DNA from: an uncultured Lachnospiraceae bacterium
Lineage (GTDB): Bacteria > Bacillota > Clostridia > Lachnospirales > Lachnospiraceae
Assembly: GCA_946620235.1 (NCBI GenBank)
Contig: CAMONC010000001.1
Coordinates: forward strand, 414 to 64,413
Length of the DNA: 64,000 bases
Direction of reading: 5' to 3'
A program made the translations under genes and the position numbers. The notes under the pieces were generated by a model. That model did no database searches. It saw only the letters and a program-made list of their open reading frames with translations, and was not told where the DNA came from. Of the stretch, positions 77 to 35,934 are shown one piece after another. Position 1 is the first letter of the stretch. Every line of letters begins with the position of its first letter.

Positions 77-2506
77 TCATGCAAGTCCCACCTCTTCGGC
101 GTAGGGTTCGAAGTCCGACTTGGTGAAGACCTTGCCGACCTTGACGAACTCGTACTTGATGGCGTTTAAGTAATGTCTCATATGCACCTCACCGTTGGCT
201 GTCGGATCGGCGGCTGCGAGGAAGGCGGCATTCAGGATACAGTTCTTGATATTACCACCCGCAAACTCATATTTCTCGGCGAGGAATCTGATATCCACAT
301 CCTCGGCCAGCGGAGTATCCTTCGGTATGGTCGTCTTCCAGAGCATCTCTCTGGTATCGACATCGGGGAACTGGAACTCCACGATGTACTTCATACGTCT
401 GAAGAATGCGGGGTCTATGTTGTGCTTGTAGTTGGTGGCCAGTACGCAGACACCGTCATATGCCTCCATCTCCTGAAGGAGCAACGCTGTCTTGTTGTTG
501 GCTGAGGCCTGGTTGGAGCCGCCGTCATCGGAACGCTTGGCGAATATGGTATCGCACTCGTCGAAAAAGAGTACGACATTACATTTCTTCGCTTCCCTGA
601 ATATCATTGACAGTGATTTCTCGGTCTCACCGACGTATTTATCCACAACCTTGGATATATCCACTCTGTACAGTTCCAGATTCAGCTCATGCGCGAGAAC
701 CTGGGCCATCATGGATTTACCGGTACCGGGAGCACCGAAGAGGAGTACCGTAAGTCCGCGTCCGTAAGGATACTTTCTCGTATAGTTCCATGATTCGTAG
801 ACCTGCTTCCTGTAGGTCATCTGCTCTATCGCATGCTCTATGGTCTCACGCTGGGTCGGATTCATGACGATATCGTCAAATCCGAACTTGGCCTCAACTC
901 TGGTGGCCTTCTGTGAGAGCTCGGAACTCATCTGGGCATAGCAGCCCTTGAAGAGACAGGCTCTGGATATCTTATCCTCCTTCTCCATATTGGAGAGTGA
1001 CTTGGCCTTGACCAGAGCATCATGTATCTTGCCCGATGTAAAGAGGAACTTGGTGGACATCTCCAGCAGATCCACGTCGTCGGCCAGCTCAAAGCCCTTG
1101 GAGAAATACTCCCAGCAGGTCAGACGCTCACCGGTGTCGGGTGTAGGCAGCTCAAGATCCGTAAACTCACTCTTGGTGACCTCACGGAAATCAATATAGA
1201 GCTTACTCATGGCGAACACCAGCACACCCTTCTCGGTAAGCTTGGAGAAAGCCAGATCCATGTAGCCGAAGAATTTCTCCTTCTCCTCATCATGGTAGGT
1301 AAGCTCTGTCAGACAGCAGCATGACTTGGTGAGAATACACTCTCTGGTAACCGACCACAGTGCTTTCTCAACAAAGCCGTAATCATATATGAACAGCTTC
1401 TTACAGTTAATGGCAACCGCGCGAAGGCCGTTCTCACGGCAGAAATGCTTCACGAAGAACCTTCGCCCGCTGCCGTCGTCGCCGTAGTAATAGAAGATGC
1501 GGACACCGTCATCATACGATATCTTCATGGCTTCAAGACGGCTTTCATTGGCCATGACGGGATCAAGCTCCTTATCGTCGGTCAGCATGTATATGAAGCG
1601 GTCGTAGTTCGCATCCAGTGCCAGGGGATTACGTCCGAAGAGGAAGTCGATCATACGCTTATCCGGTGATACGACAGTGCTGAAGGGCATGCTGTCATAT
1701 ACCTGCAGCGGCAGTACCGGGAGAAGCTGCTCGAGACATGCGGACATATCTCCGTACGCTCCGTTGATGGAGAAACCCGCCCCATAGAAAACCTTGGCTG
1801 CAGACTCTATGGTAGGTGCGGAGAGATTGGCATTCTCATTGATGATATGGAACACACCAGCGTAGTCTGTCTGTGTCGATGAGAGGATACCGCAGGCGAA
1901 GCAGAACTGGGTGAAGTACTCGAACTCCAGCCTCTGGCACAGCTCATAGAAGGGAAGCTCTATACCCTGCTCCACGGTGATCGCCGCACGACGGTTGATA
2001 GTCTCAAGACGTTCCACTATAGGCAGGCCGGCATCCTTGCGTATCTCATTCCATATCTCGCTGTCATCGTCACCCGGCTCATCGTCGGTCGCATCGAAGT
2101 CGAAACTGTTGCTGGCAGCGAAGTCCCCGAGCAGACCGAGGAGATCGTCGTCTATATCGTCATCATCATCTTCACCGAGTTCATCGGAGATACCCGTATC
2201 GGTATCGTCATCGGTATCATCATCCGCAACAGAATCCTCACCCGGACCTGCTGACTCATCCTCAGCCGTATCTGACGGCATCTTGTTCTTATACGACTCG
2301 GTCAGTCTCGAGTGGCAGGTAGCCTCAGCCAGCTCGATATCCGGATACATTATGTTCTTGTATCCGCCGTCGCCGTTCGCATATATGACCTTCAGGTGAG
2401 CGATATAGCTGTCGATGCTGGAGTTCACGCAGTCGAATACATACTGCATATACTCGCTGTAATCCTTAAAGGGCTGATTGTTTAATTCTTCATTGAAATT
2501 TGCCAT
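77..2506 (-). CDS. AAA+ ATPase, Afp15/Pvc15-like (CIS-associated)
   Basis: Intact C-terminal AAA domain (Walker A GAPGTGKS, VDKYVGETEK, Walker B FFDECD, LATN, AFFRR), degenerate first AAA domain (GDDGSGRR), acidic N-terminal insert; last gene of the CIS operon. Confidence 0.88.
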   Translation of the reverse strand: MANFNEELNNQPFKDYSEYMQYVFDCVNSSIDSYIAHLKVIYANGDGGYKNIMYPDIELAEATCHSRLTESYKNKMPSDTAEDESAGPGEDSVADDDTDDDTDTGISDELGEDDDDDIDDDLLGLLGDFAASNSFDFDATDDEPGDDDSEIWNEIRKDAGLPIVERLETINRRAAITVEQGIELPFYELCQRLEFEYFTQFCFACGILSSTQTDYAGVFHIINENANLSAPTIESAAKVFYGAGFSINGAYGDMSACLEQLLPVLPLQVYDSMPFSTVVSPDKRMIDFLFGRNPLALDANYDRFIYMLTDDKELDPVMANESRLEAMKISYDDGVRIFYYYGDDGSGRRFFVKHFCRENGLRAVAINCKKLFIYDYGFVEKALWSVTRECILTKSCCCLTELTYHDEEKEKFFGYMDLAFSKLTEKGVLVFAMSKLYIDFREVTKSEFTDLELPTPDTGERLTCWEYFSKGFELADDVDLLEMSTKFLFTSGKIHDALVKAKSLSNMEKEDKISRACLFKGCYAQMSSELSQKATRVEAKFGFDDIVMNPTQRETIEHAIEQMTYRKQVYESWNYTRKYPYGRGLTVLLFGAPGTGKSMMAQVLAHELNLELYRVDISKVVDKYVGETEKSLSMIFREAKKCNVVLFFDECDTIFAKRSDDGGSNQASANNKTALLLQEMEAYDGVCVLATNYKHNIDPAFFRRMKYIVEFQFPDVDTREMLWKTTIPKDTPLAEDVDIRFLAEKYEFAGGNIKNCILNAAFLAAADPTANGEVHMRHYLNAIKYEFVKVGKVFTKSDFEPYAEEVGLA

Positions 2507-2532
2507 ATCCGTTTCCTGCTATCGCAAAACAC

Positions 2533-2763
2533 TCATGAACCTGTATGGAACACCGCTTCGCGGTCGAACACACTCTTGGCCGTATTGATCCCGGTCTGGT
2601 TCTTTATATCAAAAACCCCCGCCTCGGTGTCGTTTATGAAAGGTTGGCGTTTGCGGACATCATACATGTAGGTTTCTTCCTCTTCGTCGTAATATCCGCT
2701 GCCGATCTTTATATCCTTCTCGTTCTTCTCTTTATTCTTACGTATCAGGTCATCATTGATCAT
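2533..2763 (-). CDS. Small hypothetical protein (76 aa)
   Basis: ATGA overlap with the upstream SH3 gene; fills the operon gap. Confidence 0.55.
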   Translation of the reverse strand: MINDDLIRKNKEKNEKDIKIGSGYYDEEEETYMYDVRKRQPFINDTEAGVFDIKNQTGINTAKSVFDREAVFHTGS

Positions 2764-3491
2764 TGTGCGGCAGTCTCCGTGTCTGCAGTCGCGTCCTCAG
2801 CGGCGGACGGCTCCGTGAGTGCGTCACCCTCGGCCGGTTCCGTCTCCGATCCATCCTTTAGGAGTGTGGTGAACTGGGGCGCCGTCAGTTCCTCGGTGGG
2901 AGCTTCCACCATATCGATGAAATCCGCGGGGAACGTCTCCTCTGTAAGCTCTGTGACCGCCAGATACCGGGTGGATAGATAGCCCTCCCTGCCCGAGTTC
3001 GATACGACCTTGCACCACTCGTTGCCGGGTTCGGTGATATACCCTCCGGTGCCGGGGAAAAGCTTCGTGATGACTGAAGCGTCTTCACTCGGTCCGGTAC
3101 GGAATCTCAAGTCAGGCTGTGTATTGGTCGTCCTGAATGAGAAATATCTGATCTCGAACACCTCAGGTTCGGGTTCGGGTTCCGGTTCAGGCTCAGGGGC
3201 AGGTTCGGCCGGCTCGGGCTCAGCCTGCTCAGGTTCGGGTTCGGCCGGCTCGGGTTCCTGAACCGTCGTTGTGACATCTGTCACATCACCGGTGGGCTCT
3301 GTCGCCGCCGGTTCAGCCACCTCTGCGGACTCTCCTATCACTGTCTGTGTCAGGGCGGCCGGCTTGGCGCCGTAGGATTTACGGTCCCGGTTAAATACCG
3401 AGCTTTTACCTCCCAGCAGTATCAGCGCAAACAGCGCCACTATTATGTAGAATACAGCTAATGCTATGAATATCCTTAAGTTCCTTTTCAT
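2760..3491 (-). CDS. Membrane-anchored bacterial SH3 (SH3b) domain protein with Glu-Pro linker
   Basis: N-terminal TM helix, (EP)n spacer, LRFRTGPS..ASVITKL..G...EWCKV...GREGYLSTRYL SH3b signature. Confidence 0.85.
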   Translation of the reverse strand: MKRNLRIFIALAVFYIIVALFALILLGGKSSVFNRDRKSYGAKPAALTQTVIGESAEVAEPAATEPTGDVTDVTTTVQEPEPAEPEPEQAEPEPAEPAPEPEPEPEPEPEVFEIRYFSFRTTNTQPDLRFRTGPSEDASVITKLFPGTGGYITEPGNEWCKVVSNSGREGYLSTRYLAVTELTEETFPADFIDMVEAPTEELTAPQFTTLLKDGSETEPAEGDALTEPSAAEDATADTETAAQ

Positions 3492-3544
3492 TATACTTAT
3501 CTCAACCTATACCGATCTTATCAATTCAAAACACAGCCCGCACA

Positions 3545-4432
3545 TCATGACGTGGGCAGCTGTATGTATATCCCCATGCCGCTTCCCTCGGGACTTCTTG
3601 CATAGATCGTGCCGCCGTAATGCTCTACGATGGCCTTGGCCTGTGTAAGCCCCAGACCGTTTCCGCTGATACGGTTCGATCCCTGGTAATTGAGCTCAAA
3701 TATATGCTTGGTTTCGTTTTCGGGCAGCCCCTTGCCGGTATCCTTGAGCACGATGAATATATCATCCTCTATGGCGGATATGGTCACCACGAGAGTACCC
3801 TCGGTCTGCATATACTTGATGGAATTATCTATGATATTGCGGAACATGATGAGCAGACGCTTGGCACTCGCATGTACCATCAGTTTATCGGAGGCAGTGG
3901 AGATATTGACTCTGAGCCCTGCCTCTCTGGCCGCATCCGCGAGCTCGGCTATCGCACGTCTGGCCACATCTATGATATCGACCGTGACGGCTGGATCCTC
4001 ATCATCCGGAGGAAGCAGGCCCTCGACAGAGGAATCGGAGGGAGTGACCGCTGCGGCCTCCTCCGCAGCACGTACCTGCTGTTCTTCGGCAGCCTGAAGC
4101 GCAGCCTCGGTGGTACCGAGCTTGGATACCAGATCATCTATCTGCAGCTGCATCCTGCGTATGTCGGAGTTCTTCTCCTCGATGGACCGGTCACACTCAG
4201 CCCGCAGCTGCTCTTTCTCAGCCTTGAGCATACCTATCTCCTGCTGCAGATGCTCGGCTCCGGTATAGTCGTTGTGCGTCGCATAACACATATATGCAAA
4301 GGCAACCATAGAGAGTGTGAAGAGAAGAAAGAATACCAGCACATACGGCAGCGGCATCGTAAACCCTGCCAATATGGTCAGTACATAGAATATGCTCGCT
4401 GCTATTATCGCCAATTTCTGCGAATTTCTCAT
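3545..4432 (-). CDS. Membrane GHKL/HATPase_c kinase lacking a recognisable HisKA H-box
   Basis: Two TM helices, coiled coil, N-box NIIDNSIKY, G1 DTGKG, F-box IFE, G2 GNGLGL; no H-box motif seen. Confidence 0.8.
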   Translation of the reverse strand: MRNSQKLAIIAASIFYVLTILAGFTMPLPYVLVFFLLFTLSMVAFAYMCYATHNDYTGAEHLQQEIGMLKAEKEQLRAECDRSIEEKNSDIRRMQLQIDDLVSKLGTTEAALQAAEEQQVRAAEEAAAVTPSDSSVEGLLPPDDEDPAVTVDIIDVARRAIAELADAAREAGLRVNISTASDKLMVHASAKRLLIMFRNIIDNSIKYMQTEGTLVVTISAIEDDIFIVLKDTGKGLPENETKHIFELNYQGSNRISGNGLGLTQAKAIVEHYGGTIYARSPEGSGMGIYIQLPTS

Positions 4433-5124
4433 TTTATGTAAACCTCCGAGTCATTTATTTTTTCCCTGCTGCCTGTAAGCTCATCGAGATCTATCCTGCG
4501 TCTGTGAGCGGCTTCCGCTGCCGACAGATCGTGTGTAGCCATGATGATCGTGATCTTTTGCCTGTGTATGATATCCAGAAGTCTCAGAATCTCCGCAGTC
4601 GATACGGGATCCAGATTACCGGTGGGCTCATCGACCAGCAGAAGCTTGGGATGATTGATCACCGCTCTCGCCAGGCACACCTTCTGCTGCTCTCCTCCTG
4701 ACATCTGGCGCGGATATCTCTTATGCAGATGGTCGATCCCGAGCATGGTGAGCACATGGGTGATCTTGGTCTCGGCATCCCTACCGCTGCCTCCGGTAGC
4801 AAGTATCGCCGCCGCGAGATTATCATACACGTTCACATCGGGGATGAGTCTGAAATCCTGAAACAGCACACCTATATCTCTGCGGTAGAATGGGATCCTC
4901 CTCCGGGGTATGTTGCGCAGGTTTACGCCGTCCACGATGATATCTCCCGATGTCGGCTCTATCTCCTTGAGCAGCATCTTGAGAAGTGTCGTCTTACCGC
5001 TGCCGCTCGCTCCGGTCAGTACGACGAACTCATCATCCGCTATCTCGGCGGAGAAGTCATCGTATACCACCGGTGCCCCGTCTTCATCCTCATATGAATG
5101 ACTGATATGGGAAAAGGTGATCAT
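4429..5124 (-). CDS. FtsE/LolD-like ABC ATPase with no adjacent permease
   Basis: Walker A GASGSGKT, RRDIGVLFQDFRL, signature MSGGEQQ, Walker B LLVDEPTGNLD, ATHD. Confidence 0.88.
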   Translation of the reverse strand: MITFSHISHSYEDEDGAPVVYDDFSAEIADDEFVVLTGASGSGKTTLLKMLLKEIEPTSGDIIVDGVNLRNIPRRRIPFYRRDIGVLFQDFRLIPDVNVYDNLAAAILATGGSGRDAETKITHVLTMLGIDHLHKRYPRQMSGGEQQKVCLARAVINHPKLLLVDEPTGNLDPVSTAEILRLLDIIHRQKITIIMATHDLSAAEAAHRRRIDLDELTGSREKINDSEVYIK

Positions 5125-5426
5125 TGGATTGCCAGTGCCTTATCAAGTCCCGTCACACGCAAGATGTCCTTCACGGGGTCGGTCACGTTGATCACGGTGA
5201 ATCGGCCGCCCTTGCTCGCCGCCGTCTTCTGCCCGATCATCAGACCTCTTAAGCCTGCGCTGGAGACGTACTGGACCCCTTCCATATTCAGGATCACATT
5301 GCCTGATTTCTGAAACCCCTTGAGTATGGCATTCTGGAATTCAGTGGCGGCTATGGCATCGATCTTGCCGCTCACATTGAGCTGGACCATGCCCTCTCCT
5401 TTTATTTCTTCTACGTTCATACTCAC
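5121..5426 (-). CDS. STAS-domain anti-sigma-factor antagonist (SpoIIAA/RsbV-like)
   Basis: SGKIDA...YVSSAGLR (phosphoacceptor Ser)...ILRVTGLD; 101 aa. Confidence 0.9.
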   Translation of the reverse strand: MSMNVEEIKGEGMVQLNVSGKIDAIAATEFQNAILKGFQKSGNVILNMEGVQYVSSAGLRGLMIGQKTAASKGGRFTVINVTDPVKDILRVTGLDKALAIQ

Positions 5427-5436
5427 TCCTCTGTAC

Positions 5437-6495
5437 TTATGTCAGAACAAACGCTCCGTCATATAATGCTTCTTCATCCAGGATCATCTGCTTGTCGGCG
5501 GGGATGGCGGCATTCATATCCAGATATGAGTTGCCGTCCATGACTGCCTCGTGCTCCATCTGCAGTATCCTGAGTTTCGTACGCAGGGGTTTGAACTGAT
5601 CCACCATGAATGTCAGCTGGTGTCTGAGTTCCTCGGTCAGCTTGCGGTTCACGAGTATCGTGATGTCAAACACTCCGCCTCCCTGCATTCTGTTCTCCAG
5701 TATCACGGGCTCCTCACCCAGTATTATCGTCAGTATCCTCTCGATACCCTTGCGCGTGCCTTTGAGCTTGTTCAGCGTATAGGCTTCCCTGACTATCCTG
5801 CGCAGTACATCCTCTTCGAGGAATCCGCCCTTCAAGTCTATACCGAACCAGGAACCGTACATCTCGAGCAGCTCGGGGGAGCAGGTATTTAAGTCAAGCA
5901 TCTCATAGAGATGTTCGTTCTGCTCCGAGATATCATTATATATGCTCGAAAACACCGACAGGTACCTGTGGAAGAAGCTGTTCCTCTCCTGATATACCTG
6001 CGGAAACGTATCCATGAAGTTATCACCCACGGCGCTTACTCTGATCCTGTCTATGGAAGCTCCTCCGTATCCCATCATCTCTATGGCGATGTAGAGGTAT
6101 CTCCCCTGCAGGTCATACAGTACCGCGTCCTCACAGTTGACCAGACGCTTCGCTCCGTGCCCGGTCATAAATCCTATCTTATCATACGGACTGATATCGG
6201 GTGCGCACAGCATATCCGCTATGGAGATGAGCCCGTGCTCATCGGTACGAACCTCCGTATGATCCGTGGCCAGGAGATATATATAGCATACCATCTCCTC
6301 GGATATATCAAGTCCGGCGCTGATGCGTCCCCACTCGGATCCGTCGTTCACACCGTCCAGCGGGCGGAAGAAGATATGATGCTCGTGCGCACTCTCATCC
6401 AGAGTGATACGCCCGTCAGTGTCGTACGTAAATCCCTGCACATATGCGCTCTTTATTCTGTTGCTTTTGATCGAATACCATATACCGTTAGCCAT
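5437..6495 (-). CDS. CIS baseplate protein with phage P2 gpI-like tail domain
   Basis: FPQVYQE..FFHRYLSVF...LEMYGSWFG...LKGTRKGIERIL motif; follows the baseplate J genes. Confidence 0.8.
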   Translation of the reverse strand: MANGIWYSIKSNRIKSAYVQGFTYDTDGRITLDESAHEHHIFFRPLDGVNDGSEWGRISAGLDISEEMVCYIYLLATDHTEVRTDEHGLISIADMLCAPDISPYDKIGFMTGHGAKRLVNCEDAVLYDLQGRYLYIAIEMMGYGGASIDRIRVSAVGDNFMDTFPQVYQERNSFFHRYLSVFSSIYNDISEQNEHLYEMLDLNTCSPELLEMYGSWFGIDLKGGFLEEDVLRRIVREAYTLNKLKGTRKGIERILTIILGEEPVILENRMQGGGVFDITILVNRKLTEELRHQLTFMVDQFKPLRTKLRILQMEHEAVMDGNSYLDMNAAIPADKQMILDEEALYDGAFVLT

Positions 6496-6514
6496 TTATC
6501 TCTCCGGTGTCATC

Positions 6515-8605
6515 TCATTTATCGGATGTAACTATCTGTATCTGAATACTGCCGGGATAGATCAGGCAGTCATAGCGCGGTATGATGTCATACTCCTTAA
6601 GCTGGGCCAGCTTGGAGTTCTCCGTATGGAGCGACAGTTCATACACATACTCCACGCATGGCAGCTCCTCTATCGCATGGAAGACATCCTCGAACCTGAG
6701 TGTCTCGCCTATGTTATGATCCGAATTCATATAATCGAGTCTGCTGTATATGCGTTCCTCGATCTGCTCCCTGCAGTCCGCGAAATGTCTCTTGACATAC
6801 ACCGTCGCCTTGACCCCTACCGGAGCATAGACGGGCTGAAGTATCCTGAACTTGGCGGTGATGAGTCTCCTCTCTTCAAGCCTCGATGATATCCTCTGTC
6901 TGTATATCTCACTGAGCTTCGGAAATCTCTCATCCGTGTCAGGCAGCACCACCACGCTCACGAGATTCTCTCTTTCATCCATCACGGCGCGTGTCTTACG
7001 GATACACAGTCCCGGTGTGGTACTTACTATCGACTCATAATCCCCGGCGGTGACTGCGGTATACGGTGTACGCATATCCCTGATGAATCTGCCTCTGACA
7101 TCCTGAAGTGTCTCTCTGTAGACGCCGCCCGTGCCTTCACCCGGATTATAGAATGTCACGGGTATATCCCCGTCATCCATGCTCACTTTATTTCCGGCGG
7201 AGATATTTCCTCTGGGACCGGATGTAACGGCCGCGCTGCCCATATACAGATCCGCCCCTATGAAGTCGCCCGCATCCTCTATGACTATACGTCCCTCGTT
7301 CTCGAGGAGGTGATAGTACAGTGCACCGGGGGATTTCTTCTCCGGTCTGACGAAGTCATATGTATAACCCTCCTCATCCTGCCTCCTGGCTATGAGGAAG
7401 AAGCTCTCGCTCACGATATGTTCCAGAGGAAGTGCGATCTCCTGATCGTCATATCCTATAACCGTACCGACATTGTAGCGTCTCATGATCTGCTCGTTAT
7501 ACAGGATGACTCTGACGCACTCCTTGCCCTTCGACGGTGCATATCCGTACTCGCGTCCGTCGAATATGAAGGTCATGCCGTCCTCTGTCTCCCTGTATCT
7601 GCAGAAGCGGCCGCGCATGCCGCCACCGGTCACCAGTTCATACCTGCGGTACGGCTCACCGCGTCCGTCACGTCCGAAGACGAGATAGTACACATCGTGC
7701 CCTATGGGCGATCTGACCGTTACACGGTCGGCTCTCGAGAAAGCCTGTGAATATGCGTATGTATCCTTTTGCCACACCTCAAACAGGAATCCGTAGAGAT
7801 TAGTCATCTTCGGCACGATATCATAGTCCGCACGCTTAAGGACCGCCCTGAGGCAATAACCGGTTACCGGAGTATCGCTGAATACCGTGGGCTCAGTATC
7901 GGGCAGGGATATGCGTATCTCCCCGCTGCCGCTGAATGCGCCCGTGAAATCGCGCACGCTTAAGGTCTCCCAGCCGTCTGCCGTATGGATCTGCCATTCC
8001 ACATCCGCGAAGATGTGCTCGGTCCGGTTCTCGGTCTGATTGCGTCTGCTGTTTATCACCATCCTGATATACATGATGATCTCATGCAGTCCGCTCAGGT
8101 CGGCATCGAATATGATATAGAGAGCATTGTCCGCTTCCGGATGCTCACCGAATATACGTGCGGGTACGGCCAGCTCACGATCCAGCACGAAGCTGATATC
8201 CTTATACCCGTCTTTATCCCCGGCATAGACCGCGGTTACGCGTCCGGCGCCTGCTGTCGTCTCCCTGTTGGTCTCAAAGCAGATGTCACCCAGATGGAAT
8301 CTCTGTCCGGACATAAGCGTAAGCGGTGTTTCGAGTTCATCGGCCGACAGCAGAACCCTCGAGCACTTGCCTCTGGCAGGAGTGAATCCGGCCATCTTGA
8401 GCAGCGCCATACGCGCACGATAGCTTAGAGCCACGATCTCAGCACCCTGCAGGGCCGAGAAAGCGGTCAGGTTCTCCAGGATGGTGATACCGGGGTCCGA
8501 GGGATTATAATTGGTCCACTCCGAGCTTCTTAAGGGAAGTTCCCTAAGAATGTCGTCCATCCTCTCTTCATATGTTCTGCCTTGAAGCTGTTCAACTCTG
8601 AGCAT
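6515..8605 (-). CDS. Baseplate J/gp6-like wedge protein (Afp11-like)
   Basis: EWTNYNPSDPGITILE N-terminal motif; TAVTAGDYE motif; C-terminal J-like domain. Confidence 0.88.
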   Translation of the reverse strand: MLRVEQLQGRTYEERMDDILRELPLRSSEWTNYNPSDPGITILENLTAFSALQGAEIVALSYRARMALLKMAGFTPARGKCSRVLLSADELETPLTLMSGQRFHLGDICFETNRETTAGAGRVTAVYAGDKDGYKDISFVLDRELAVPARIFGEHPEADNALYIIFDADLSGLHEIIMYIRMVINSRRNQTENRTEHIFADVEWQIHTADGWETLSVRDFTGAFSGSGEIRISLPDTEPTVFSDTPVTGYCLRAVLKRADYDIVPKMTNLYGFLFEVWQKDTYAYSQAFSRADRVTVRSPIGHDVYYLVFGRDGRGEPYRRYELVTGGGMRGRFCRYRETEDGMTFIFDGREYGYAPSKGKECVRVILYNEQIMRRYNVGTVIGYDDQEIALPLEHIVSESFFLIARRQDEEGYTYDFVRPEKKSPGALYYHLLENEGRIVIEDAGDFIGADLYMGSAAVTSGPRGNISAGNKVSMDDGDIPVTFYNPGEGTGGVYRETLQDVRGRFIRDMRTPYTAVTAGDYESIVSTTPGLCIRKTRAVMDERENLVSVVVLPDTDERFPKLSEIYRQRISSRLEERRLITAKFRILQPVYAPVGVKATVYVKRHFADCREQIEERIYSRLDYMNSDHNIGETLRFEDVFHAIEELPCVEYVYELSLHTENSKLAQLKEYDIIPRYDCLIYPGSIQIQIVTSDK

Positions 8606-8645
8606 TATTCAGTGCCTCTGTTTTCCTCCGTGACATACCCGTATG

Positions 8646-11600
8646 TCACTTGTTGGTTATGATCACTTTATGTGAGCCGCTCCGTGTTACCATGAACGGG
8701 GTGATCTCTATGTCTTTGGTGTCAAGCTCGTGTGAGCCCGTCGTGTCCGTGTAGGTGCCTATCACGGTGATCCTCTGGATGATGGCCCGGCTTCTCAAGA
8801 CACTCAGTCTCATCAGGATCTGTGATTCCTTGGGCAGCACACCTATGGCCCAGCCGGAATTGTTCTCATCGGACACGGGATTCAAGTATGAACTGAGTAC
8901 GCTCTTTAACTCATTCTGAACCTCGAAGCTGTCATCCATATCCATGACAGTGGCCCATACGGTGACCGAGATATCCACGAATACAGGCTCCACGATGTGC
9001 AGATTGTCATCCGACACGGTCAGCTCGCAGTGCCTGAGCAGATCCTTCTTGAGCAGTGCCGATATCCTGTGGAAGGAAAAGGATCCGTCGGCGAAGTCCT
9101 TCATGAGCAGAACGATCGAGATATCCGAAGCATCGCCACCGCCGTCTATGGTCTCGCCTACCACCACACTGGTTCTCTCGATGCTGTCACTGTACTCCAT
9201 GATGTAGCGTATGTAATCACCCTCGCTGACCAGCTTGCCTCTGGCATGCATGATGCCCGCCCCGCGCATAAGCGCATGGTCAAGGGTCTCCAGGTTGCTG
9301 CCTCCGTGAGCACGTATCGGATTATACAGGCTGTCTATATACGGAGCATCTCCGGCAAAGGATGTGATGGCTCCCTCGGGCAGGTTGCCGTCCTCACCGT
9401 CCGTCGACCTGATGCGTGCCATAAACGCCACATTATCCGTAACTCTGGGCATATCACAGAGATTGCCGTCAGAGAACATCACCTCTCCCGTAAGCCTGTC
9501 TATGCGGTAGCATCTTCTGTCGGGAGCGTTGTAGAAATCATCCGTCTCTTTCCAGAGAACATAGAACGCGGATATACGCCCCAGCAGATCATACTCGGCC
9601 CGGACACGCTCGGGAGTCTGTGAAAGCATCTCCTCCATTTCGTCCTTACGCAGCGATCCGGCCTCGTTGACCCATATCTCGGCATCCAGTATATTGGACG
9701 ACCCGAGTGTAAACCGCATGTTGGGCATCACTTCGTCTATGTAATAGTCGGTCTCATCACCTGTCTGAACATTGGTCACGGTGACTGCATTCAGACACAT
9801 CCTGACGATATGGGGCAGGAACACATCGCTGCCCTCATTCTTCTGTGCGGTGCTTCTGACTATACGTATCCAGTACAGGCGGTTGCCCTCCAGAGTCATC
9901 TCCGTCATATCGGCCGGAGGCAGGAACATGATGGTGCCGGACCGTGTAAACTCCTCCGTCAGATCGGTGAATCTCATCTCCTTGAATCCGGTGGGGGATG
10001 AATACTCGAGCCTGAACCGCACACCGTTCTGGTTACTGATCTCCGAGAGCTGGAAGTACAGACTGATCGGTCCTTCCTCAAGCTTGCGGTCGAGACCTAT
10101 GTATAATGTATCCTCGGCATATTCACTGCCGGATAATATCGTAAACGGTTTGCCCGTGCCTATCTGCTCGCTGATATCGGACTTGACCGTACCGGCTATC
10201 CTCTCGAGCTTGACCGGAGGCACATACCTGCCCTCATAGGAGTAGGTTATCTTCAGCCCCTCTATGATCGGATATGTGTGGATGGCCGGCCGCATATAGC
10301 AGTTATCGGATCTGGTGATACGCATGCGCAGCGTGCGTCCGCTGTACGGGCCGCTCTCCGAGCTCACCCAGTCCTCCGGACATGTGAAGCTCAGAGAATA
10401 CCTGCCGTTCTCGGCATTGGCGAAAAGTCCCGCATATTCGGTATCACAGTTTAGTTTCTTCCAGCCTATGCCGTTGTAGTACTCTATCGTGATCTCATCC
10501 GCCTTGACGAGTGACGGATTATCGTAGGGTATCTTCCTGGGCTTACGTTTGATGACCGTAAGCTCCGCATCCTCCTGCTCCGCGGTCAGTCTGATCTGGT
10601 TATCCTGATAGGTGACATCGAAGTCCAGGGTTATGTGGGCGCCTCTCTTGGAGAAGCAGGGATCGTGTCCTATATAGCACTCATTGTACTGTGCGAGAGT
10701 ATCGGAGAAGGGTATGAATTTGCCCGGCTCCAGTTCCATCTGTCCGTCACCGACATACTCGGGTGACCTGGATGCACCACCGGCAGATATGCTCACATCC
10801 TCCACCTTGAGAGACTCCGTCATCGGTTCATGTGCCTCAAGGATCACCACGGACATCTCACGTCCGCCCATGGATACATGCGCACATTCCCCTGACTTCA
10901 TGAGTTCAAAGGTGATACCGTCGTCTAAGAGCTTCACGCTGTCGAAATCCGCAAATCCGCTCTGAGTCAGATACCGGAAGTCAAACTCCCGTCCGCTTAT
11001 CCTGTCAGCTATATCCTCGCCGCCCGCCAGTCTGATATATATGGGTTCATTCACTCCGTCAAACAGTCTGTCGTGATATATGATGAGCACGCTCTGTCCC
11101 AGATTACTCTGCTCACCGAAGAGTACAAAAGGCGGGATAGTCTGTATCATCTCCTCGTCCAGGATATCGGAGAGTAATACGGGGGTCTCAGGCTCAGCGT
11201 CCGATTCATCGTTCTCTTCGATGACAGGCTGTATGACTGCCGACTCGGGTACGATGGAGGGAACAGCGAAGTCGCCGAATACCGGAGAGATGGTACCGCG
11301 CTCCATATCGGTCAGGAACACGGCCCTGATCTGTGCTTCAGTCACATAGATGTTGCGGTCGGTCTCATATATGATATAGCCGGTTTCCGATCGCGAGGAC
11401 TCCGCACTGAGTCTGGTTCCCTTCGGAAGCCTGGCTCCGGGCAGTATCCCGCCGTAGAGGTTGAATATGACGAGACTGCCTGCGGGCTGTGCCGGATTCA
11501 ATGTGAAATCCAGCATGTTCACGAACTCCAGATGATACCGCTCGGGCATCAGACTCATGAGGTGGTAGTTCTCCTCGGTCTGCCTGGCAAAAACCTGTGC

Positions 11601-11723
11601 AATGACAGAACCTATATCCGGGTTGTCGCGGTCAAAATGCCACTCCGGAATATAGGATGCCGCCAGCTTCTCTATTTGATCTTCTATCTCCCCCGCTGTG
11701 AGGGGTTTCCAGATATTACTCAT
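8646..11723 (-). CDS. Large baseplate J/gp6-like wedge protein (Afp11/Afp12-like)
   Basis: YIPEW...PDIG...F, DRLTGEVMFSDG, STDGEDGNL, AHGGSNLET, LVSEGDY, YLNP...GWAIG motifs. Confidence 0.88.
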   Translation of the reverse strand: MSNIWKPLTAGEIEDQIEKLAASYIPEWHFDRDNPDIGSVIAQVFARQTEENYHLMSLMPERYHLEFVNMLDFTLNPAQPAGSLVIFNLYGGILPGARLPKGTRLSAESSRSETGYIIYETDRNIYVTEAQIRAVFLTDMERGTISPVFGDFAVPSIVPESAVIQPVIEENDESDAEPETPVLLSDILDEEMIQTIPPFVLFGEQSNLGQSVLIIYHDRLFDGVNEPIYIRLAGGEDIADRISGREFDFRYLTQSGFADFDSVKLLDDGITFELMKSGECAHVSMGGREMSVVILEAHEPMTESLKVEDVSISAGGASRSPEYVGDGQMELEPGKFIPFSDTLAQYNECYIGHDPCFSKRGAHITLDFDVTYQDNQIRLTAEQEDAELTVIKRKPRKIPYDNPSLVKADEITIEYYNGIGWKKLNCDTEYAGLFANAENGRYSLSFTCPEDWVSSESGPYSGRTLRMRITRSDNCYMRPAIHTYPIIEGLKITYSYEGRYVPPVKLERIAGTVKSDISEQIGTGKPFTILSGSEYAEDTLYIGLDRKLEEGPISLYFQLSEISNQNGVRFRLEYSSPTGFKEMRFTDLTEEFTRSGTIMFLPPADMTEMTLEGNRLYWIRIVRSTAQKNEGSDVFLPHIVRMCLNAVTVTNVQTGDETDYYIDEVMPNMRFTLGSSNILDAEIWVNEAGSLRKDEMEEMLSQTPERVRAEYDLLGRISAFYVLWKETDDFYNAPDRRCYRIDRLTGEVMFSDGNLCDMPRVTDNVAFMARIRSTDGEDGNLPEGAITSFAGDAPYIDSLYNPIRAHGGSNLETLDHALMRGAGIMHARGKLVSEGDYIRYIMEYSDSIERTSVVVGETIDGGGDASDISIVLLMKDFADGSFSFHRISALLKKDLLRHCELTVSDDNLHIVEPVFVDISVTVWATVMDMDDSFEVQNELKSVLSSYLNPVSDENNSGWAIGVLPKESQILMRLSVLRSRAIIQRITVIGTYTDTTGSHELDTKDIEITPFMVTRSGSHKVIITNK

Positions 11724-11728: not shown

Positions 11729-12190
11729 TTAACCTTCACCGTACTCGTCTATATCTATGATCTCAGGCTCGTAGTACTCCTCTTCCTCCTCGGGTACAGG
11801 CTCCGCATTCAGATAAAAGGGAAATACGAGATTGCCGAACTGATTCGTCTCCGCAACCGTATAATCTATATTGATCATGATATATCCCTGCTGTGCCTGC
11901 ATATCGGTCGTGATATCCACATCGGAAACCCTGGGTTCCTGACGCAGGATGCTCTCGGTCAGATCACGCTTCATGATGGTAAGCTCAGTGAGATTCACAT
12001 CCATGAAGACATACGACGCGCTGTCCGTACCGAATGACGGTCGTGTCAGACGTTCGGTGACCTGAGTCATAAGTATCAGATATATGGATTCCCTGACGCT
12101 CTGCATACCGCTGCTGGTTACGAATCTCCCCGTGGCGGGATCTATACGCGGCGGAAACGCCATGCCTGTTCCTAAATGATCTTTTGCCAT
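11729..12190 (-). CDS. gp25/GpW-like baseplate protein (Afp9-like)
   Basis: LGTGMAFP...VRESIYLILMT..ERLTRPSFG...EPRV...NLVFPFYL. Confidence 0.92.
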   Translation of the reverse strand: MAKDHLGTGMAFPPRIDPATGRFVTSSGMQSVRESIYLILMTQVTERLTRPSFGTDSASYVFMDVNLTELTIMKRDLTESILRQEPRVSDVDITTDMQAQQGYIMINIDYTVAETNQFGNLVFPFYLNAEPVPEEEEEYYEPEIIDIDEYGEG

Positions 12191-12215
12191 AATACTTTCC
12201 TATAGTTGTGTTATG

Positions 12216-13028
12216 TTAACCGAGTTTGATCGGAGTTCCTTCCACCGATACCGGGCCGCTGCTCTTGAGTTTCAGCATCGAGTTGCCCGATGCGTTGACA
12301 TTGCCGCCCTCTAAATTCAGTCTGCTGTTTGCCTTGATCTCCGTGCTGTCCGAAGAAGTGATCTTGACCTTGCTCGCATCTATCGATACGGTTCCGTTGG
12401 ACCCGTTCATGAACACCTTGATATTGTCACCGCACTTGATCGTAAGCTTCTGATCCGCATTGATCTCCATCTGGCCGTTCTCGGTCTTCATCTCGATCTT
12501 GTTCTTGCCTTCCTTGTCGGAGATCAACAGCTTCTTTTTATCGTTATCCATCTCGATCTTGAAGGCATCCTTGCCTGTCTTGATGACGATATGATCCTTC
12601 TCACCCTCGCCCTCCTTGTTATCCATGATCTCGATGAGATTACCGTTACGGGTCTGTATCCTCTTATACTGGTTGTCCTCATCAAATGCCTTCTGGACGA
12701 AGTTTGAATTGAGCTTCGGTACGGCACCTATGATGAACGGCTTGTCGATGTTGCCCTGTTCGAATACCACGAGCACCTGGTCTCCCACCTCGGGAACGAA
12801 GTATTCGCCCCATTTCTGGCCTCCGTAGGGAAATGCGATCCTCGCCCAGACAAGCTTGTTCTCCTGATAGTCTCTGGTTGTTATGTTAACCAGAACCTGC
12901 CCCTGATGATCCTTGTCATAGTTTTTGACCACCTGACATACCAATACTCCCATCAGACGGTTGTCACCCATATCCGTTTTGTCTATCTGATGTCTGGCGA
13001 CATCATCCATTATATCGAAAAAGGGCAT
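12216..13028 (-). CDS. Spike protein, gp5/GpV OB-fold plus beta-helix (C-terminal half of VgrG/Afp8)
   Basis: WARIAFPYGG..WGEYFVPEVGDQVLVVFEQGNIDKPFIIGAV; beta-strand repeats at the C-terminus. Confidence 0.9.
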   Translation of the reverse strand: MPFFDIMDDVARHQIDKTDMGDNRLMGVLVCQVVKNYDKDHQGQVLVNITTRDYQENKLVWARIAFPYGGQKWGEYFVPEVGDQVLVVFEQGNIDKPFIIGAVPKLNSNFVQKAFDEDNQYKRIQTRNGNLIEIMDNKEGEGEKDHIVIKTGKDAFKIEMDNDKKKLLISDKEGKNKIEMKTENGQMEINADQKLTIKCGDNIKVFMNGSNGTVSIDASKVKITSSDSTEIKANSRLNLEGGNVNASGNSMLKLKSSGPVSVEGTPIKLG

Positions 13029-13051
13029 TGAAACCTCCTAAACATAAGCAC

Positions 13052-14221: not shown

Positions 14222-14227
14222 ATCGTC

Positions 14228-15214: not shown

Positions 15215-15228
15215 ATCCGCCTATCCTC

Positions 15229-22912: not shown

Positions 22913-23302
22913 TCAGTTTGCTGTTACCTTAACCTGTCCCGGAAACGTGATGGATACCGAGCCTGCGTAAGCACACATCATCTTACAGTCACCTGTAAGA
23001 CAGGGCTTGCCGCCTATGATCACCTTCGGTTTGGTGGGGATCCAGGTGCCGGCCGGCATGGGCATGCACGGTTGTGGTGTAAGCACTCCCATTGCTGCCG
23101 TGGTCGCTGCCGCGACTGCCGGATTGGCCATGGATGTACACAGTCCGAAGGGTCCTATATTGGCTCCTCCCTGTGAATCCGCGATGGTTGCTGCGGGCTT
23201 GCCCTGCGCCATGACCTTAGCCTGTGATGTCACTTTGACAGGTGCGGGTGCCGTGCCCATTGTGCACATTGCGGTTCCTCCCGCTGCTACCAGTTCACTC
23301 AT
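22913..23302 (-). CDS. DUF4280 PAAR-like spike tip protein
   Basis: AMCTMG..P...NIGPFGLCTSMANPAVAAATTAAMGVLTPQPCMP...W...CKMMCAYAGSVSI..PGQ. Confidence 0.92.
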   Translation of the reverse strand: MSELVAAGGTAMCTMGTAPAPVKVTSQAKVMAQGKPAATIADSQGGANIGPFGLCTSMANPAVAAATTAAMGVLTPQPCMPMPAGTWIPTKPKVIIGGKPCLTGDCKMMCAYAGSVSITFPGQVKVTAN

Positions 23303-24104
23303 GATCCGTAGTTTCCTTTCCGGTATAAGGCAATACCTTGATTGCGTTGTCCATCAAGTCGATCTCTCCGGACTCCTGGTGAAAATCGATCGGTCTGAAG
23401 TACTCATTACCGCCTGCGGTGAATCGTATCAAGTGCGGCAGTGTGCTGCCGTCATCCCTCACTTTCAGCGTGTAATCTCCTTCGGGGCCCGCTCTGCCGT
23501 ATATGATACGGCATACTCTTTCACCCGGTTTGTGTTCTCCTTTGAGCGGTTCTTCAAGGACAACACGTGTCGGATTATCGCTTTCCGCGATACCGAACAC
23601 TTCATAGCGCGATCCATCTTCCGATACCAATGCGTAACGCATATTATCGATCACTACTCTTCCTCCGGATGTCAGCGGCATAAGGTTCATGTAATATACA
23701 TCTCTCCTTGCCGAGGCTTCGTGGAAGACGCAGATCGGCCGTGTAACAGCTACGGCTTCGATGGATTCCAGTTTGGAAAGGTTCCCGTGGATCTCTATTA
23801 CGGATCCTGCTGTGCGATTCTTCTCTGACGGCATCAGGAATACATCGCATATAGGGAGTTTGGGATCAAGCTTTTCGTAACGGACATCCAGATCCAGTTC
23901 CTCGTATCCCCGGGCCTTGATATGCATAGAAAAGTCTTCCCTGCTTTCGCCCGTGAATACCCAGAAGCCGTCGCCCTTAAACATGGGCCTGAGCACTTCC
24001 GCGCCGGAATCAAAGTGTATATCCGTTTCTGTCAGTTCTCTCCCTGTGGTGGTATCGATCAGGCGAAGCGCTAAAGACAGGCGTGCTCTGATCACTACAC
24101 TCAA
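23295..24104 (-). CDS. Conserved CIS-associated beta-rich hypothetical protein
   Basis: Between the Pvc16-like and PAAR-like genes, overlapping the latter; LALRLIDTTTGR and IKARGYE transthyretin-like signatures. Confidence 0.65.
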   Translation of the reverse strand: MSVVIRARLSLALRLIDTTTGRELTETDIHFDSGAEVLRPMFKGDGFWVFTGESREDFSMHIKARGYEELDLDVRYEKLDPKLPICDVFLMPSEKNRTAGSVIEIHGNLSKLESIEAVAVTRPICVFHEASARRDVYYMNLMPLTSGGRVVIDNMRYALVSEDGSRYEVFGIAESDNPTRVVLEEPLKGEHKPGERVCRIIYGRAGPEGDYTLKVRDDGSTLPHLIRFTAGGNEYFRPIDFHQESGEIDLMDNAIKVLPYTGKETTDHE

Positions 24105-24112: not shown

Positions 24113-24703
24113 CTACCTCCTTTCCTCTCCGGTTACACTGATCTCAAAACCGGCATCGGTTACACGAGGTGTATCGATGATCTCACCGCTTGACAGGTAT
24201 ACGGGTGCCGCCCGGTAGAACAGGCTGATCTGATAAGGCTTGTTGATCGCCTGCCATACCCGCACTTTTTCCTCCAGACTTATCTTCGCCTGAGACAGTA
24301 CTATCGGAGGCTCCTGCGTGTCGAGCCAGTTTTGGAGTTCATTGGGCCTGACGGAACTGTTATCGTTCACTATCTGCGCTATGCGCCCAATGATTTTCTG
24401 TATATCGGGATCCTTGAGGCCCATCTGGCCGGATCCGTTGATAAAGACCATATAGTATAATGCATATGGTCTGGGCGGTTTGGATATCTGAGCCCGGCCT
24501 GCCTGTACATATCTGGGACCGGTCACTTCCACGTCCTCTCTGATATCATACAGATACAGACCTACGATATAGTCCACGTCCTGAGACATGGGGGACGATA
24601 TCTCTATATTGTTGGGAGAAGGGATGGGCTCGGGACACATTTTCTCCCTGAGCGTCTTGATTATATATGCGCTTACATCTGATATTATCGGATAATCTGC
24701 CAT
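24113..24703 (-). CDS. DUF4255/Pvc16(Afp16)-like tail terminator (cap)
   Basis: IISDVS..IIKTLR...IEISSP...VGLYLYDIRED...LYYMV...VWQAINKPYQISLFYRA.PV. Confidence 0.88.
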   Translation of the reverse strand: MADYPIISDVSAYIIKTLREKMCPEPIPSPNNIEISSPMSQDVDYIVGLYLYDIREDVEVTGPRYVQAGRAQISKPPRPYALYYMVFINGSGQMGLKDPDIQKIIGRIAQIVNDNSSVRPNELQNWLDTQEPPIVLSQAKISLEEKVRVWQAINKPYQISLFYRAAPVYLSSGEIIDTPRVTDAGFEISVTGEERR

Positions 24704-30752: not shown

Positions 30753-30768
30753 TTACCGTTTCCTCCGG

Positions 30769-33186: not shown

Positions 33187-33222
33187 CTGATCCTGTCTTT
33201 CATACGATTAAATCAACACCGT

Positions 33223-34068: not shown

Positions 34069-34080
34069 CCGATGGGCTCC

Positions 34081-35934
34081 TTACAGATCGAGTTTCGGTA
34101 TATCAACCATGGGCTCCGGCTTCTGCTCGGGTGTTCCGCCCGGATCCGACTCCTTGGCATCGTTCTTGACTATCGCGTATGCATAGGTGCATACCATGGG
34201 CATATCGGAGCAATATATCCTGATCTCGTATACACCCTCCTTGGCCGGTGCGGTATATACTCCGTCAGTGGACACTTCACCGCTGCCGGATGCTGTCAGC
34301 TCATAGGTGATGCTGACGGGATCCATATTGTTGAACTGTACACCGAAGTAATAATTCTCACGAGGTCTCATGACAACAGTGGGGGTCTTGGCCGTGATGG
34401 TCTTGCCGTAATAATCCGCAGTATCGAGGTCGTCACCCGAAGGGAACCTGATGGCTACCCATCTGTATGTCAGCACAAGGAAATCAACGTCATGCAAAAG
34501 CTTGGCTGCCACTACGAAGCTGCCCTTGTCATTGAGCACCCTGACCGCGGTCTCCGCATCAACCAGCTGCTGTGACTGTCTGGAGAAAAGCTCGGGATTA
34601 CCGTATACGGTACTCTTGGCATTGGCCCCGAGTGCCTGATCGGCGGAGAGGTACTCATATCCTATCGATACATATACATTGCCGCTGCCGAGCCCGTGCG
34701 TGATCTCTCCGGAATAGCGTATATCTCCGGCTCTGGCGTCCTTGCCCAAAGGGATCTCCAGCACGCCCGTAGCCACATTCTTAAGCTCAGAACCGGTGAT
34801 CGGAGCGGGGGCAGTATCCGATGAAGAATTCGCATCCGCTGTTTCGGGGACGGATATATCCGCTTCCTTGACGTAATACTCCATGTATTCGGTGCGGATC
34901 GAATTCTGTGCAGGCAGATCGATATAAGCATCGGTTGCGGGATCAATCACATCCTCGATCACATAAGCGCTGTCGGTGCGCATCAGTTTGATATCGGCCA
35001 GGCGGATCGAATCCGTACCCATACCCTGTCTCATCTCGAGGTTGAGTCTGCCGAGCTCGCGTCCGACAAGTGCTGAGGGAGAATCCTCCGAAAGTCTGAC
35101 TCTTATGGCTATGCTGCTCTCGGCACCTATAGCCTTATCATCCTCAAATGCCGTCGCGGATCCGCTCCTCAGGATCACATTGGATTCTATACCGGGCTGG
35201 CTCATGGTCTTCACCCAGTAATCCCTGTACATCACACCGCCCTCCGGCAGTTCTATATCATCCACGCAGATCTCTATCTGCTGTGTACCGTCCGGTGCCG
35301 TAAATGCCGGTATATCCAGGATTCCCTTGAACGAAAGCTTCACGTCCGCATCGGTCTTTTTGTGTATCTCAAGCCTGATCTTTACATTGCGGTCCTTGCA
35401 TACGGTCGTTGGCATCACAATAAATCCGGTAAAGTTCGCTCCCGAGAACACCTGCTCCTTCGTCAGGAACTCAGACTCCAGCTCCAGTCCTTCCTCATAA
35501 TCCTCGCGATCGCAGAGGAATAACTCGAAGCCCTCACTGATACGGTTGAATTCATAATCCTGGTCCGTATCCTTGTGGCTCACGGCATATACGGAATGTA
35601 TCTCATTCTCCTTGTATCTCACGCAGAGACTTGCCAGATCGGTATGAAGAGAATCAAATCCCGATATCGTGGACAGCTTCTTGACGATGGATGAGTCAAT
35701 GATGATCTCACGCCCGGTACCGTCAATGACCACACCGCTTTCAACCAGTATCGACAGATCGTCCAGATTAAACACGCCGCACCCGCATACGATACCCGAT
35801 CCGTACATGAGGCTGTTCATAAACCTGAGCTTGTCGATGTGGTAGTTCTGCTCCGCCTGGAAATCAGCCGTAGTAAGCATCTTACCCGGATAATAGCGGT
35901 TCCTTTCAAACGGATATAACTGACTGTTTGGCAT
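34081..35934 (-). CDS. CIS baseplate-attachment/fibre-like protein with C-terminal Ig-like domain
   Basis: N-terminal FERNRYYPGKMLTTADFQAEQNYH...GSGIVCG...VESGVVIDGTGREII, typical of CIS fibre anchor domains; C-terminal GEVSTDGVYTAP. Confidence 0.72.
   Translation of the reverse strand: MPNSQLYPFERNRYYPGKMLTTADFQAEQNYHIDKLRFMNSLMYGSGIVCGCGVFNLDDLSILVESGVVIDGTGREIIIDSSIVKKLSTISGFDSLHTDLASLCVRYKENEIHSVYAVSHKDTDQDYEFNRISEGFELFLCDREDYEEGLELESEFLTKEQVFSGANFTGFIVMPTTVCKDRNVKIRLEIHKKTDADVKLSFKGILDIPAFTAPDGTQQIEICVDDIELPEGGVMYRDYWVKTMSQPGIESNVILRSGSATAFEDDKAIGAESSIAIRVRLSEDSPSALVGRELGRLNLEMRQGMGTDSIRLADIKLMRTDSAYVIEDVIDPATDAYIDLPAQNSIRTEYMEYYVKEADISVPETADANSSSDTAPAPITGSELKNVATGVLEIPLGKDARAGDIRYSGEITHGLGSGNVYVSIGYEYLSADQALGANAKSTVYGNPELFSRQSQQLVDAETAVRVLNDKGSFVVAAKLLHDVDFLVLTYRWVAIRFPSGDDLDTADYYGKTITAKTPTVVMRPRENYYFGVQFNNMDPVSITYELTASGSGEVSTDGVYTAPAKEGVYEIRIYCSDMPMVCTYAYAIVKNDAKESDPGGTPEQKPEPMVDIPKLDL

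Follow-up and report, generated by a model that had tools for sequence, protein, structure and literature searches.

The 64,000-nucleotide stretch of contig CAMONC010000001.1 from an uncultured Lachnospiraceae bacterium, referred to here as the window, carries an operon that encodes a complete contractile injection system (CIS) together with a dedicated module of membrane, exported, and signaling proteins. The CIS resembles subtype IIa of the extracellular CIS (eCIS), and its genes suggest that it is, on balance, probably docked baseplate-first at the membrane and fired outward from the living cell in the manner of a type VI secretion system (T6SS). Membrane docking is favored because the nearest solved sheath belongs to a membrane-bound, contact-killing haloarchaeal clade-IIa CIS, and because a conserved tip of the short baseplate fiber Cis13 co-occurs with a bitopic MORN-repeat protein with one transmembrane segment (MORN-TM) in 24/24 loci, whereas the module occurs in 0/5 loci with other fibers. 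Gene content, protein folds, dead catalytic motifs, and co-conservation of module and CIS were established directly.

Gene content and classification of the injection system

The operon consists of exactly 29 minus-strand genes separated by -8 to 110 bp, and the next gap outside it is 132 bp, in agreement with the original prediction of 29 co-oriented genes with gaps of about 110 bp or less. Besides the CIS set, nine membrane, exported, or signaling proteins were identified by Pfam, NCBIfam, and transmembrane (TM) prediction, close to the "about ten" noted earlier. These are a 903-aa exported protein, a TolC-like protein, MORN-TM, a 4-TM receptor, a kinase-fold protein with a TM segment, a STAS protein, an FtsE-like ATPase, and two TM proteins with HATPase and SH3b domains, respectively. 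The structural set found by Pfam and NCBIfam includes an Afp15-type AAA ATPase, Cis12/gpI, two baseplate-J proteins, gp25, a split VgrG (hub and spike), two CIS_tube proteins, the tube, a long tube-domain protein, a chaperone, the sheath, a DUF4280 PAAR protein, Pvc16, and Cis13. The set had been predicted to be full and of Afp/PVC type; its completeness stands, whereas the type is lineage II and subtype IIa-like.

Subtype IIa is defined in the accessible text of Chen 2019 (PMC6899500) by two afp11 copies, an afp8 split into gp27 and gp5, and the presence of divergent afp12 and afp13, and the window set has all of these features by Pfam and NCBIfam. The CIS is thus assigned to lineage II, subtype IIa-like, by gene content and nearest sheath. 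Among PDB entries, the sheath matched the haloarchaeal T6SS 9EZM best (E 1e-108), followed by Streptomyces 8BKY (E 2e-95) and PVC/Afp (about 1e-45), and the sole PDB matches of the baseplate search were 9GTP and 9QGL. Afp and PVC share the sheath, tube, baseplate, Afp15, and Pvc16 with the window system, and differ in a much more distant sheath, single Afp8 and Afp11, and released particles with target-binding fibers. Afp/PVC proper (lineage I, with a single afp11 and a contiguous afp8) was ruled out by the two baseplate-J genes and the split hub and spike. The Streptomyces IId layout was ruled out by the IIa layout and the presence of Cis13; no search was made for CisA homology. Canonical T6SS (i-iii), which are recognized by TssJLM and a split TssB/C sheath, are also excluded by gene content, as neither had a Pfam or NCBIfam match among the 39 window proteins. 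A search of the genome (83% complete) with the IcmF-N profile detected no TssM, the E. coli control being positive.

Cis13 is composed of a baseplate-binding N-terminus, a conserved tip domain (residues 385-497), and an Ig-like end, without an S74 chaperone. Mean pairwise identity is 39-40% for the tip versus 21% for the middle domain, and the protein weakly matches All3314 of the Anabaena tCIS. The end of the tail assembly chaperone gene contains a slippery heptamer, AAATTTT (20172-20178, minus strand), with an open -1 frame of at least 67 codons. This heptamer was found in 81/92 loci and any XXXYYYZ in 87/92, versus 1/92 at a control position, and the pair is therefore predicted to be a gpG/gpGT-like programmed frameshift kept in a domesticated CIS. 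The 629-aa protein is a putative tape measure solely on account of where it lies and how its length varies. The 269-aa protein adjoining the cap gene had no family match in Pfam, NCBIfam, or PHROGs.

Contig C1, the source of the window, belongs to a 2.5-Mb genome that is 83% complete (G000). The host is a monoderm member of Lachnospiraceae (Clostridia), as had been supposed, judging from its relatives and from Omp85, which was not found in this genome and was detected in all seven diderm controls. The best 80 sheath relatives among GTDB species are assigned by title to Lachnospiraceae (including Butyrivibrio, Acetatifactor, and Eisenbergiella) or Eubacterium, and a relative was encoded in 307 of the 328 stretches matched by the sheath search. 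According to the record titles of sheath relatives, carriers include cultured Butyrivibrio isolates.

The membrane module

The membrane pseudokinase lacks both the HRD and DFG motifs. Its model (pLDDT 92.9) aligned with the kinases PknS (VIA Z 14.2, rmsd 2.8, 189 aligned) and PpkA (Z 11.4), which likewise place a membrane-bound kinase fold beside a secretion machine, the T6SS, and differ in retaining catalytic motifs. Its nearest named family in the Atlas is YukC/EssB (0.91, 184 shared features), described in the accessible text of PMC9600267 as a membrane pseudokinase that contacts all parts of the type VIIb secretion system. Unlike EssB, the window protein has no EssB-type outer domain and no sequence-profile match to YukC; PF10140 matched none of 114 pseudokinase family members, and YukC was not among the top 50 structural rows. 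A homologue in G028 has an outer proline linker and a LysM-like end, and LysM was found in 1/114 family members. The HAMP and Guanylate_cyc assignments of the receptor come from matches of its homologues, in which the first metal-binding Asp position is not conserved.

By profile, the TolC-fold protein matches E. coli TolC over the two repeats (E 4e-5), and its model (pLDDT 81.5) shows two helical repeats and two C-terminal beta-sandwich domains. As modeled, it has the two-repeat alpha-helical barrel fold of TolC/OEP channels, with the barrel strands shrunk to two short hydrophobic hairpins (96-104 and 329-339) whose strands are 3-5 residues long. Unlike those channels, it belongs to a host without an outer membrane and carries the two extra beta-sandwich domains. 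An outer-membrane beta-barrel with a partner pump is not indicated, with no Omp85 found in the 83%-complete genome and no adaptor or permease in the operon. For its 903-aa partner, the profile returned only coiled-coil noise from PDB, and the sole family found was a C-terminal Cu-amine-oxidase-N-like domain in one homologue. Both proteins have N-terminal export signals and therefore cannot belong to a particle that is assembled in the cytoplasm.

The FtsE-like ATPase was rejected as the housekeeping copy, since the housekeeping ftsEX sits on contig C5; it is a second copy, without FtsX or a permease. The SpoIIE/PP2C phosphatase encoded upstream of the operon is likely the partner of its STAS protein. 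SpoIIE or anti-sigma-type genes often flank the STAS, FtsE, HATPase, and SH3b genes, and SpoIIE/HATPase_c_2 genes adjoin the CIS in G546, G590, G613, and G645.

Co-conservation of the module and Cis13

A total of 33 loci were fetched. Two remnants without Cis13 (G477 and G442), one locus with Cis13 outside the stretch (G004), and one at which the contig ends (G787) were left out, and the others comprised 24 loci with the conserved Cis13 tip and five with another fiber end. MORN-TM was encoded in all 24 complete loci with a short, conserved-tip Cis13, the pseudokinase and the pseudo-cyclase receptor in 21 each, and the TolC pair in 13. No module gene occurred in the five other loci; three of them bear long S74-chaperone fibers, two with nuclease-domain neighbors. 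The gene-neighborhood survey that had been called for thus supports strict linkage, in both directions, between the membrane genes and this CIS clade, whereas STAS, FtsE, HATPase, and SH3b are a less regular addition. The latter are confined to part of one branch, with FtsE missing from most TolC-bearing loci. The whole signaling tail was consequently rejected as core, being patchy in relatives and a subclade add-on.

Broader searches gave the same picture. The TolC-fold and 903-aa genes were paired in 14/14 fetched and 65/65 metagenome loci. Sheath-seeded loci with enough flank contained the 903-aa gene in 66/66, TolC-like in 53/57, MORN in 51/56, and receptor in 51/56 cases, the misses being due to enlarged or duplicated 903-aa genes that fill the 10-kb flank. 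TolC-seeded metagenome loci carried a CIS gene in 50/51 cases with room, the 903-aa gene in 65/65, and MORN in 71/71. Among 251 Lachnospiraceae genomes, about one per genus and with part of the scans scoring only four candidates per genome, 26 had the sheath, 24 the pseudokinase (23 sheath-positive), and 12 the TolC-like protein; these 12 were all sheath-positive and in the branch with sheath identity of at least 60%. The sheath was present in 7/7 congeners and 10/401 Clostridia, and Cis13 matched in 9/391 phylum-wide genomes. The Cis13 tip is conserved across several families, and Cis13 travels with the module where the operon is rearranged. G735, which belongs to a distant family and was not used in profile building, keeps the window order Cis13-pseudokinase-receptor-MORN-TolC-903aa-Pvc16-269aa-PAAR. 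MORN proteins are 320-449 aa long (one 546) with the TolC pair and 493-800 aa (one split gene) without it.

Several variant loci were also observed. In G004 (L017:4922-18054) and G192 (L111:12278-18424), the TolC-fold protein reaches 1243 aa, and the 903-aa gene is present in duplicate, with variable insertions that have enlarged it (to 1776 aa). In G613 (L149:15929 to L150:19164), the CIS operon is interrupted between the 903-aa homologue and Pvc16 by an insertion that encodes a 3353-aa exported protein and, after it, some 20 small genes and a pretoxin with a HINT domain. Two features recur next to TolC-less loci (L116:7220-10584, L167:9679-13357, and L168:1629-5235), namely a sensor-MFS fusion accompanied by a substrate-binding protein, and a regulator of the BTAD/NTPase type. 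The remnant loci L140-L142 (G477) and L171-L173 (G442) have a sheath without baseplate or module genes.

Proposed mechanism and alternative explanations

Based on these data, we infer attachment to the cell and outward firing through the following steps. A fixed-length, capped sheath-tube would be built in the cytoplasm and loaded with large cargo by Afp15-type ATPases. The short Cis13 foot may then bind, through its conserved tip, the cytoplasmic face of MORN-TM and the membrane pseudokinase, the latter providing a scaffold much like YukC/EssB in the type VII system. On the outer side of the membrane, the wall would be spanned or opened by the MORN solenoid, in one branch together with the TolC-fold protein and its 903-aa partner, and SH3b and LysM domains could tether the complex to peptidoglycan. 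Finally, the pseudo-cyclase receptor may relay an external cue through protein contact instead of cAMP, and so trigger firing into a touching cell.

In the available text on the Halogeometricum borinquense CIS (9EZM; Zachs 2024, PMC11566945), a clade IIa system is bound to the cytoplasmic membrane through six feet that fit Cis12/Cis13, and it mediates contact-dependent killing. A conserved membrane gene marks this anchored haloarchaeal branch, whose nearest bacterial relatives are Bacillota (PMC11566945). The window system, as judged from genes alone, shares with it the nearest solved sheath, two Cis11, Cis12, Cis13, a single-membrane host, and a membrane gene marker. The archaeon differs in having neither peptidoglycan nor a complex outside the membrane, and one 6-TM anchor candidate where the window has three to five unrelated membrane or exported proteins; the window in turn encodes a putative tape measure and no DUF4157 cargo. 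The T6SS subtype iv of Amoebophilus and Aureispira, according to the accessible text of bioRxiv 2024.01.29.577165, is likewise eCIS-derived, tape-measured, and anchored without TssJLM. Its hosts are diderm, its clade is another one, and no TolC or MORN component is named in that text. Aureispira has a six-fold trans-envelope complex with antennae, so envelope complexes other than TssJLM exist (same source).

Several points weigh against docking and outward firing. Related CIS differ in their mode, which is unreliable from sequence alone according to the accessible part of PMC12998442, and the sheath is also close to that of the self-killing Streptomyces CIS. The 24-versus-5 split corresponds to few independent clades on the sheath tree and is therefore to be read as a pattern rather than a statistic; the same loci, with seven exceptions, also served to build most of the profiles. 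The pseudokinase was not found in the G082 and G164 genomes, no toxin family was recognized in the cargo candidates by Pfam, NCBIfam, or PHROGs, and none of the conserved operon genes encodes a dedicated wall hydrolase. The TolC pair is absent from 11 of the 24 module-bearing loci, and a full trans-envelope complex is therefore not universal. The envelope complex unrelated to TssJLM that had been proposed gains support from the lack of TssM, but not as a full complex in all carriers. The pore of a canonical TolC trimer measures about 3.5 nm and a CIS tube about 8 nm. The trimer would be too narrow for the tube, and the TolC pair would therefore form a larger ring, or serve as a sensor or strut.

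A Streptomyces-like mode appears unlikely, in which free cytoplasmic particles are recruited to the membrane under stress and fired at the producer's own envelope for programmed death or development, the module being an elaborate CisA equivalent with sensors. The similar sheath, the walled monoderm host, and the receptor and partner-switching genes agree with it. Bitopic CisA is encoded just after the baseplate genes (accessible text of PMC12237407), the position of the pseudokinase and MORN genes here. However, the Streptomyces system has a IId layout without a fiber, a single adaptor, and self-directed killing, whereas the window has the IIa architecture (two Cis11, split VgrG, and Cis12/13) with the Cis13 foot retained and a multi-protein module, and outward delivery would suit both the TolC-fold pair, which is exported, and a diversified cargo served by several loader ATPases. 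Release of an ordinary extracellular CIS by lysis through unlinked autolysins or prophages, with membrane genes that only sense conditions and control expression or lysis, is rated lower still. In its favor, the particle is self-contained, with a cap, an Afp15 ATPase, and a putative tape measure. The strict linkage of Cis13 tip and MORN-TM would nevertheless be left unexplained, the receptor and kinase are catalytically degenerate, and there is no long or variable receptor-binding fiber but a tip conserved over several families.

The lysis genes do not decide between these modes. As predicted, the 39 window proteins include no holin, endolysin, capsid, or integrase by Pfam and NCBIfam (22 were also compared with PHROGs), the sole lysis-class match being an SH3b binding domain alone. 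A lysis cassette just outside the window was also sought, and no lysis genes were found in about 20 kb beyond the locus in two same-genus genomes. The flanks of 11 loci (114 proteins) contained no holin and one amidase-SPOR gene, adjoining the G651 locus; further neighbor sets of 59 and 56 proteins contained no such gene, and the one holin family scanned genome-wide (PF05105) was not found. SH3b proteins with an NlpC/P60-like end, recognized by eye, lie near two loci, and these and the amidase-SPOR gene could serve lysis-mediated release. The scanned neighbors of three module-free, long-fiber loci were also without holin or endolysin. Absence therefore favors neither mode, and the argument that no lysis genes means no lysis, on which the original prediction had drawn, was rejected.

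It is improbable that the TolC-fold protein, the 903-aa protein, and the FtsE-like ATPase make up an export or surface structure of their own, such as an adhesin or antenna, which is co-regulated with the CIS and is not the path of the tube. The TolC pair is dispensable in 11/24 loci and expanded or duplicated in some, and G613 and G651 encode giant exported proteins within the operon or next to it, which would suit such a structure. On the other hand, the operon has no permease or membrane-fusion protein, the FtsE copy is missing from most TolC-bearing loci, and the TolC pair was never seen without a CIS in the 251 Lachnospiraceae genomes and the metagenome loci. A separate TolC structure is compatible with membrane docking through the MORN/pseudokinase core.

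Membrane docking can be extended to a fuller picture, which is possible but rather doubtful. This would be a T6SS of Gram-positive gut bacteria in which a pseudokinase/MORN inner complex docks an eCIS-derived injector, a TolC-fold ring (perhaps six-fold rather than trimeric) serves as a tunnel or antenna through peptidoglycan, and the pseudo-cyclase receptor acts as the gate. Polymorphic cargo of 1000-2500 aa, each with its own Afp15 loader, would be delivered by such a machine in about one in ten Lachnospiraceae genera, with activity in the rumen.

Firing of the T6SS type has been documented in diderm bacteria and in a single archaeal clade; the introduction of Zachs 2024 (PMC11566945) states that T6SS had previously been described solely in Gram-negative bacteria. 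For T6SS-like firing from a living cell, the likely mode here, no report was found for Gram-positive bacteria. A full-text search, with thin coverage of subscription journals, found no description of this membrane module with a CIS in Lachnospiraceae, Clostridia, or Bacillota. The module is undescribed in the accessible text of Geller 2021, the 2025 metagenome survey, a review, and the rumen cryo-ET paper; supplements (dbeCIS tables, Geller lists, and Zachs fig. S6) may list loci as plain eCIS. The candidate parts named here (MORN-TM, pseudokinase, pseudo-cyclase receptor, and TolC-fold pair) are carried by cultured Butyrivibrio and hence are testable. The locus would be a bacterial sister of the archaeal T6SS, offers a TolC-fold protein a role in a host that has no outer membrane, and suggests that a contact weapon has been overlooked in a family that dominates in the rumen and gut.

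Table 1. Features of the operon and its upstream neighbors in the window
Feature	Position	Strand	Basis or remark
Whole operon	77-35934	minus	29 genes: 27 ORFs of at least 80 aa and two small ORFs (2533-2763, 19957-20160)
Afp15-type AAA+ ATPase, 809 aa	77..2506	minus	Pfam/NCBIfam
Accessory tail: STAS, FtsE-like ABC ATPase, 2-TM coiled-coil HATPase, TM-Pro-linker-SH3b, 76-aa protein	2533..5426	minus	Pfam/NCBIfam
Two baseplate-J (Cis11a/b) and Cis12/gpI	5437..11723	minus	Pfam/NCBIfam
Two CIS_tube (Afp7-like), hub and spike (split VgrG), gp25	11729..16251	minus	Pfam/NCBIfam/PHROGs
Second tube-domain protein, 579 aa, with a long tail of repeats; putative tape measure, 629 aa	16291..19922	minus	Weak gp19 match of the tube-domain protein
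Tail assembly chaperone (20157-20519) and -1 frame extension (19957-20160)	19957..20519	minus	PHROG 508
Inner tube	20630..21130	minus	Pfam T4 gp19, E 5e-31
Contractile sheath, 568 aa	21181..22887	minus	Pfam
DUF4280 PAAR-like spike tip	22913..23302	minus	Pfam, E 2e-31
269-aa conserved protein adjoining cap gene	23295..24104	minus	Present in 76/76 loci with room
Pvc16/Afp16 cap	24113..24703	minus	Pfam Pvc16_N, E 1e-26
Exported helical protein, 903 aa	24707..27418	minus	N-terminal hydrophobic segment; obligate partner of TolC-fold gene
Exported TolC-fold protein, 689 aa	27444..29513	minus	Pfam OEP; Foldseek TolC, E 1e-9
Bitopic MORN-repeat protein (MORN-TM), 411 aa	29517..30752	minus	Pfam MORN; TM 72-90
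4-TM receptor, 805 aa	30769..33186	minus	TM prediction; two domains on the outside, a HAMP domain, and a degenerate cyclase domain of class III
Membrane pseudokinase, 281 aa	33223..34068	minus	Hanks-kinase fold; one TM at 233-251
Cis13 short baseplate fiber/foot, 617 aa	34081..35934	minus	NCBIfam CIS13, E 1e-25
SpoIIE/PP2C membrane phosphatase	37326..39158	minus	Pfam
Candidate cargo array: three large proteins of 2170, 1167, and 2449 aa, plus partner genes (GNAT-like and 216-aa)	39171..60096	minus	Upstream of CIS

Expression and surroundings of the operon

Public RNA libraries provide weak evidence for expression. Part of the tube-to-cap stretch is present in 17 RNA runs, and contigs from four gut studies cover the tube, sheath, and cap genes, with no silent control. 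Pieces from three studies fall on the MORN, receptor, pseudokinase, or Cis13 genes. Such contigs show neither level nor strand, and their cover of the cargo array is sparse and uninformative on expression. A promoter and terminator scan of the locus performed no better than chance. Past the Afp15-type ATPase, the contig runs 413 bp further, into a signal-peptide surface protein.

Cargo candidates

At the other end of the operon, the functional island probably reaches to about 60.9 kb. The three large proteins of the upstream array are fast-evolving and have no signal peptide, and the same array lies upstream of the CIS in G001 and G003 with 26-44% identity, versus 89-90% for the sheath. Paralogous cassettes of an Afp15-type ATPase, a 216-aa protein, and a large protein occur away from the CIS in G000 and G001, and an ATPase-large protein pair in G003; in G004 and G192, large proteins lie between two or three ATPase copies. 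Afp15 is the protein that loads cargo in PVC particles. The large, divergent upstream proteins, tied to extra Afp15-type ATPases, are candidate cargo by these sequence features, and the orphan Afp15-type ATPases are candidate cargo-specific loaders. Orphan cassettes far from the CIS operon were observed at L131:5996-12236 (G000 C65), L269:9069-15379, and L270:12065-16325.

The 216-aa protein was also considered as a CesT/YbjN chaperone, for which PDB and Pfam profiles gave no support. The array is headed by Hpt, an HD-GYP-type membrane protein, and a response regulator (window 60113-63990). In G001 and G003, a close homologue of the latter is likewise part of this array, and in G192 it lies immediately before cis13. 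In the 2170-aa protein, a papain-like Cys-His-Asp stretch was recognized by eye, and another large protein, cut by a contig end (L133:11986-15195), has this stretch in common with the 2170-aa family (23% identity). The 2170-aa protein also contains low-complexity Glu/His/Gln repeats (window 40428-42419), of which in-frame length variants occur in a public run.

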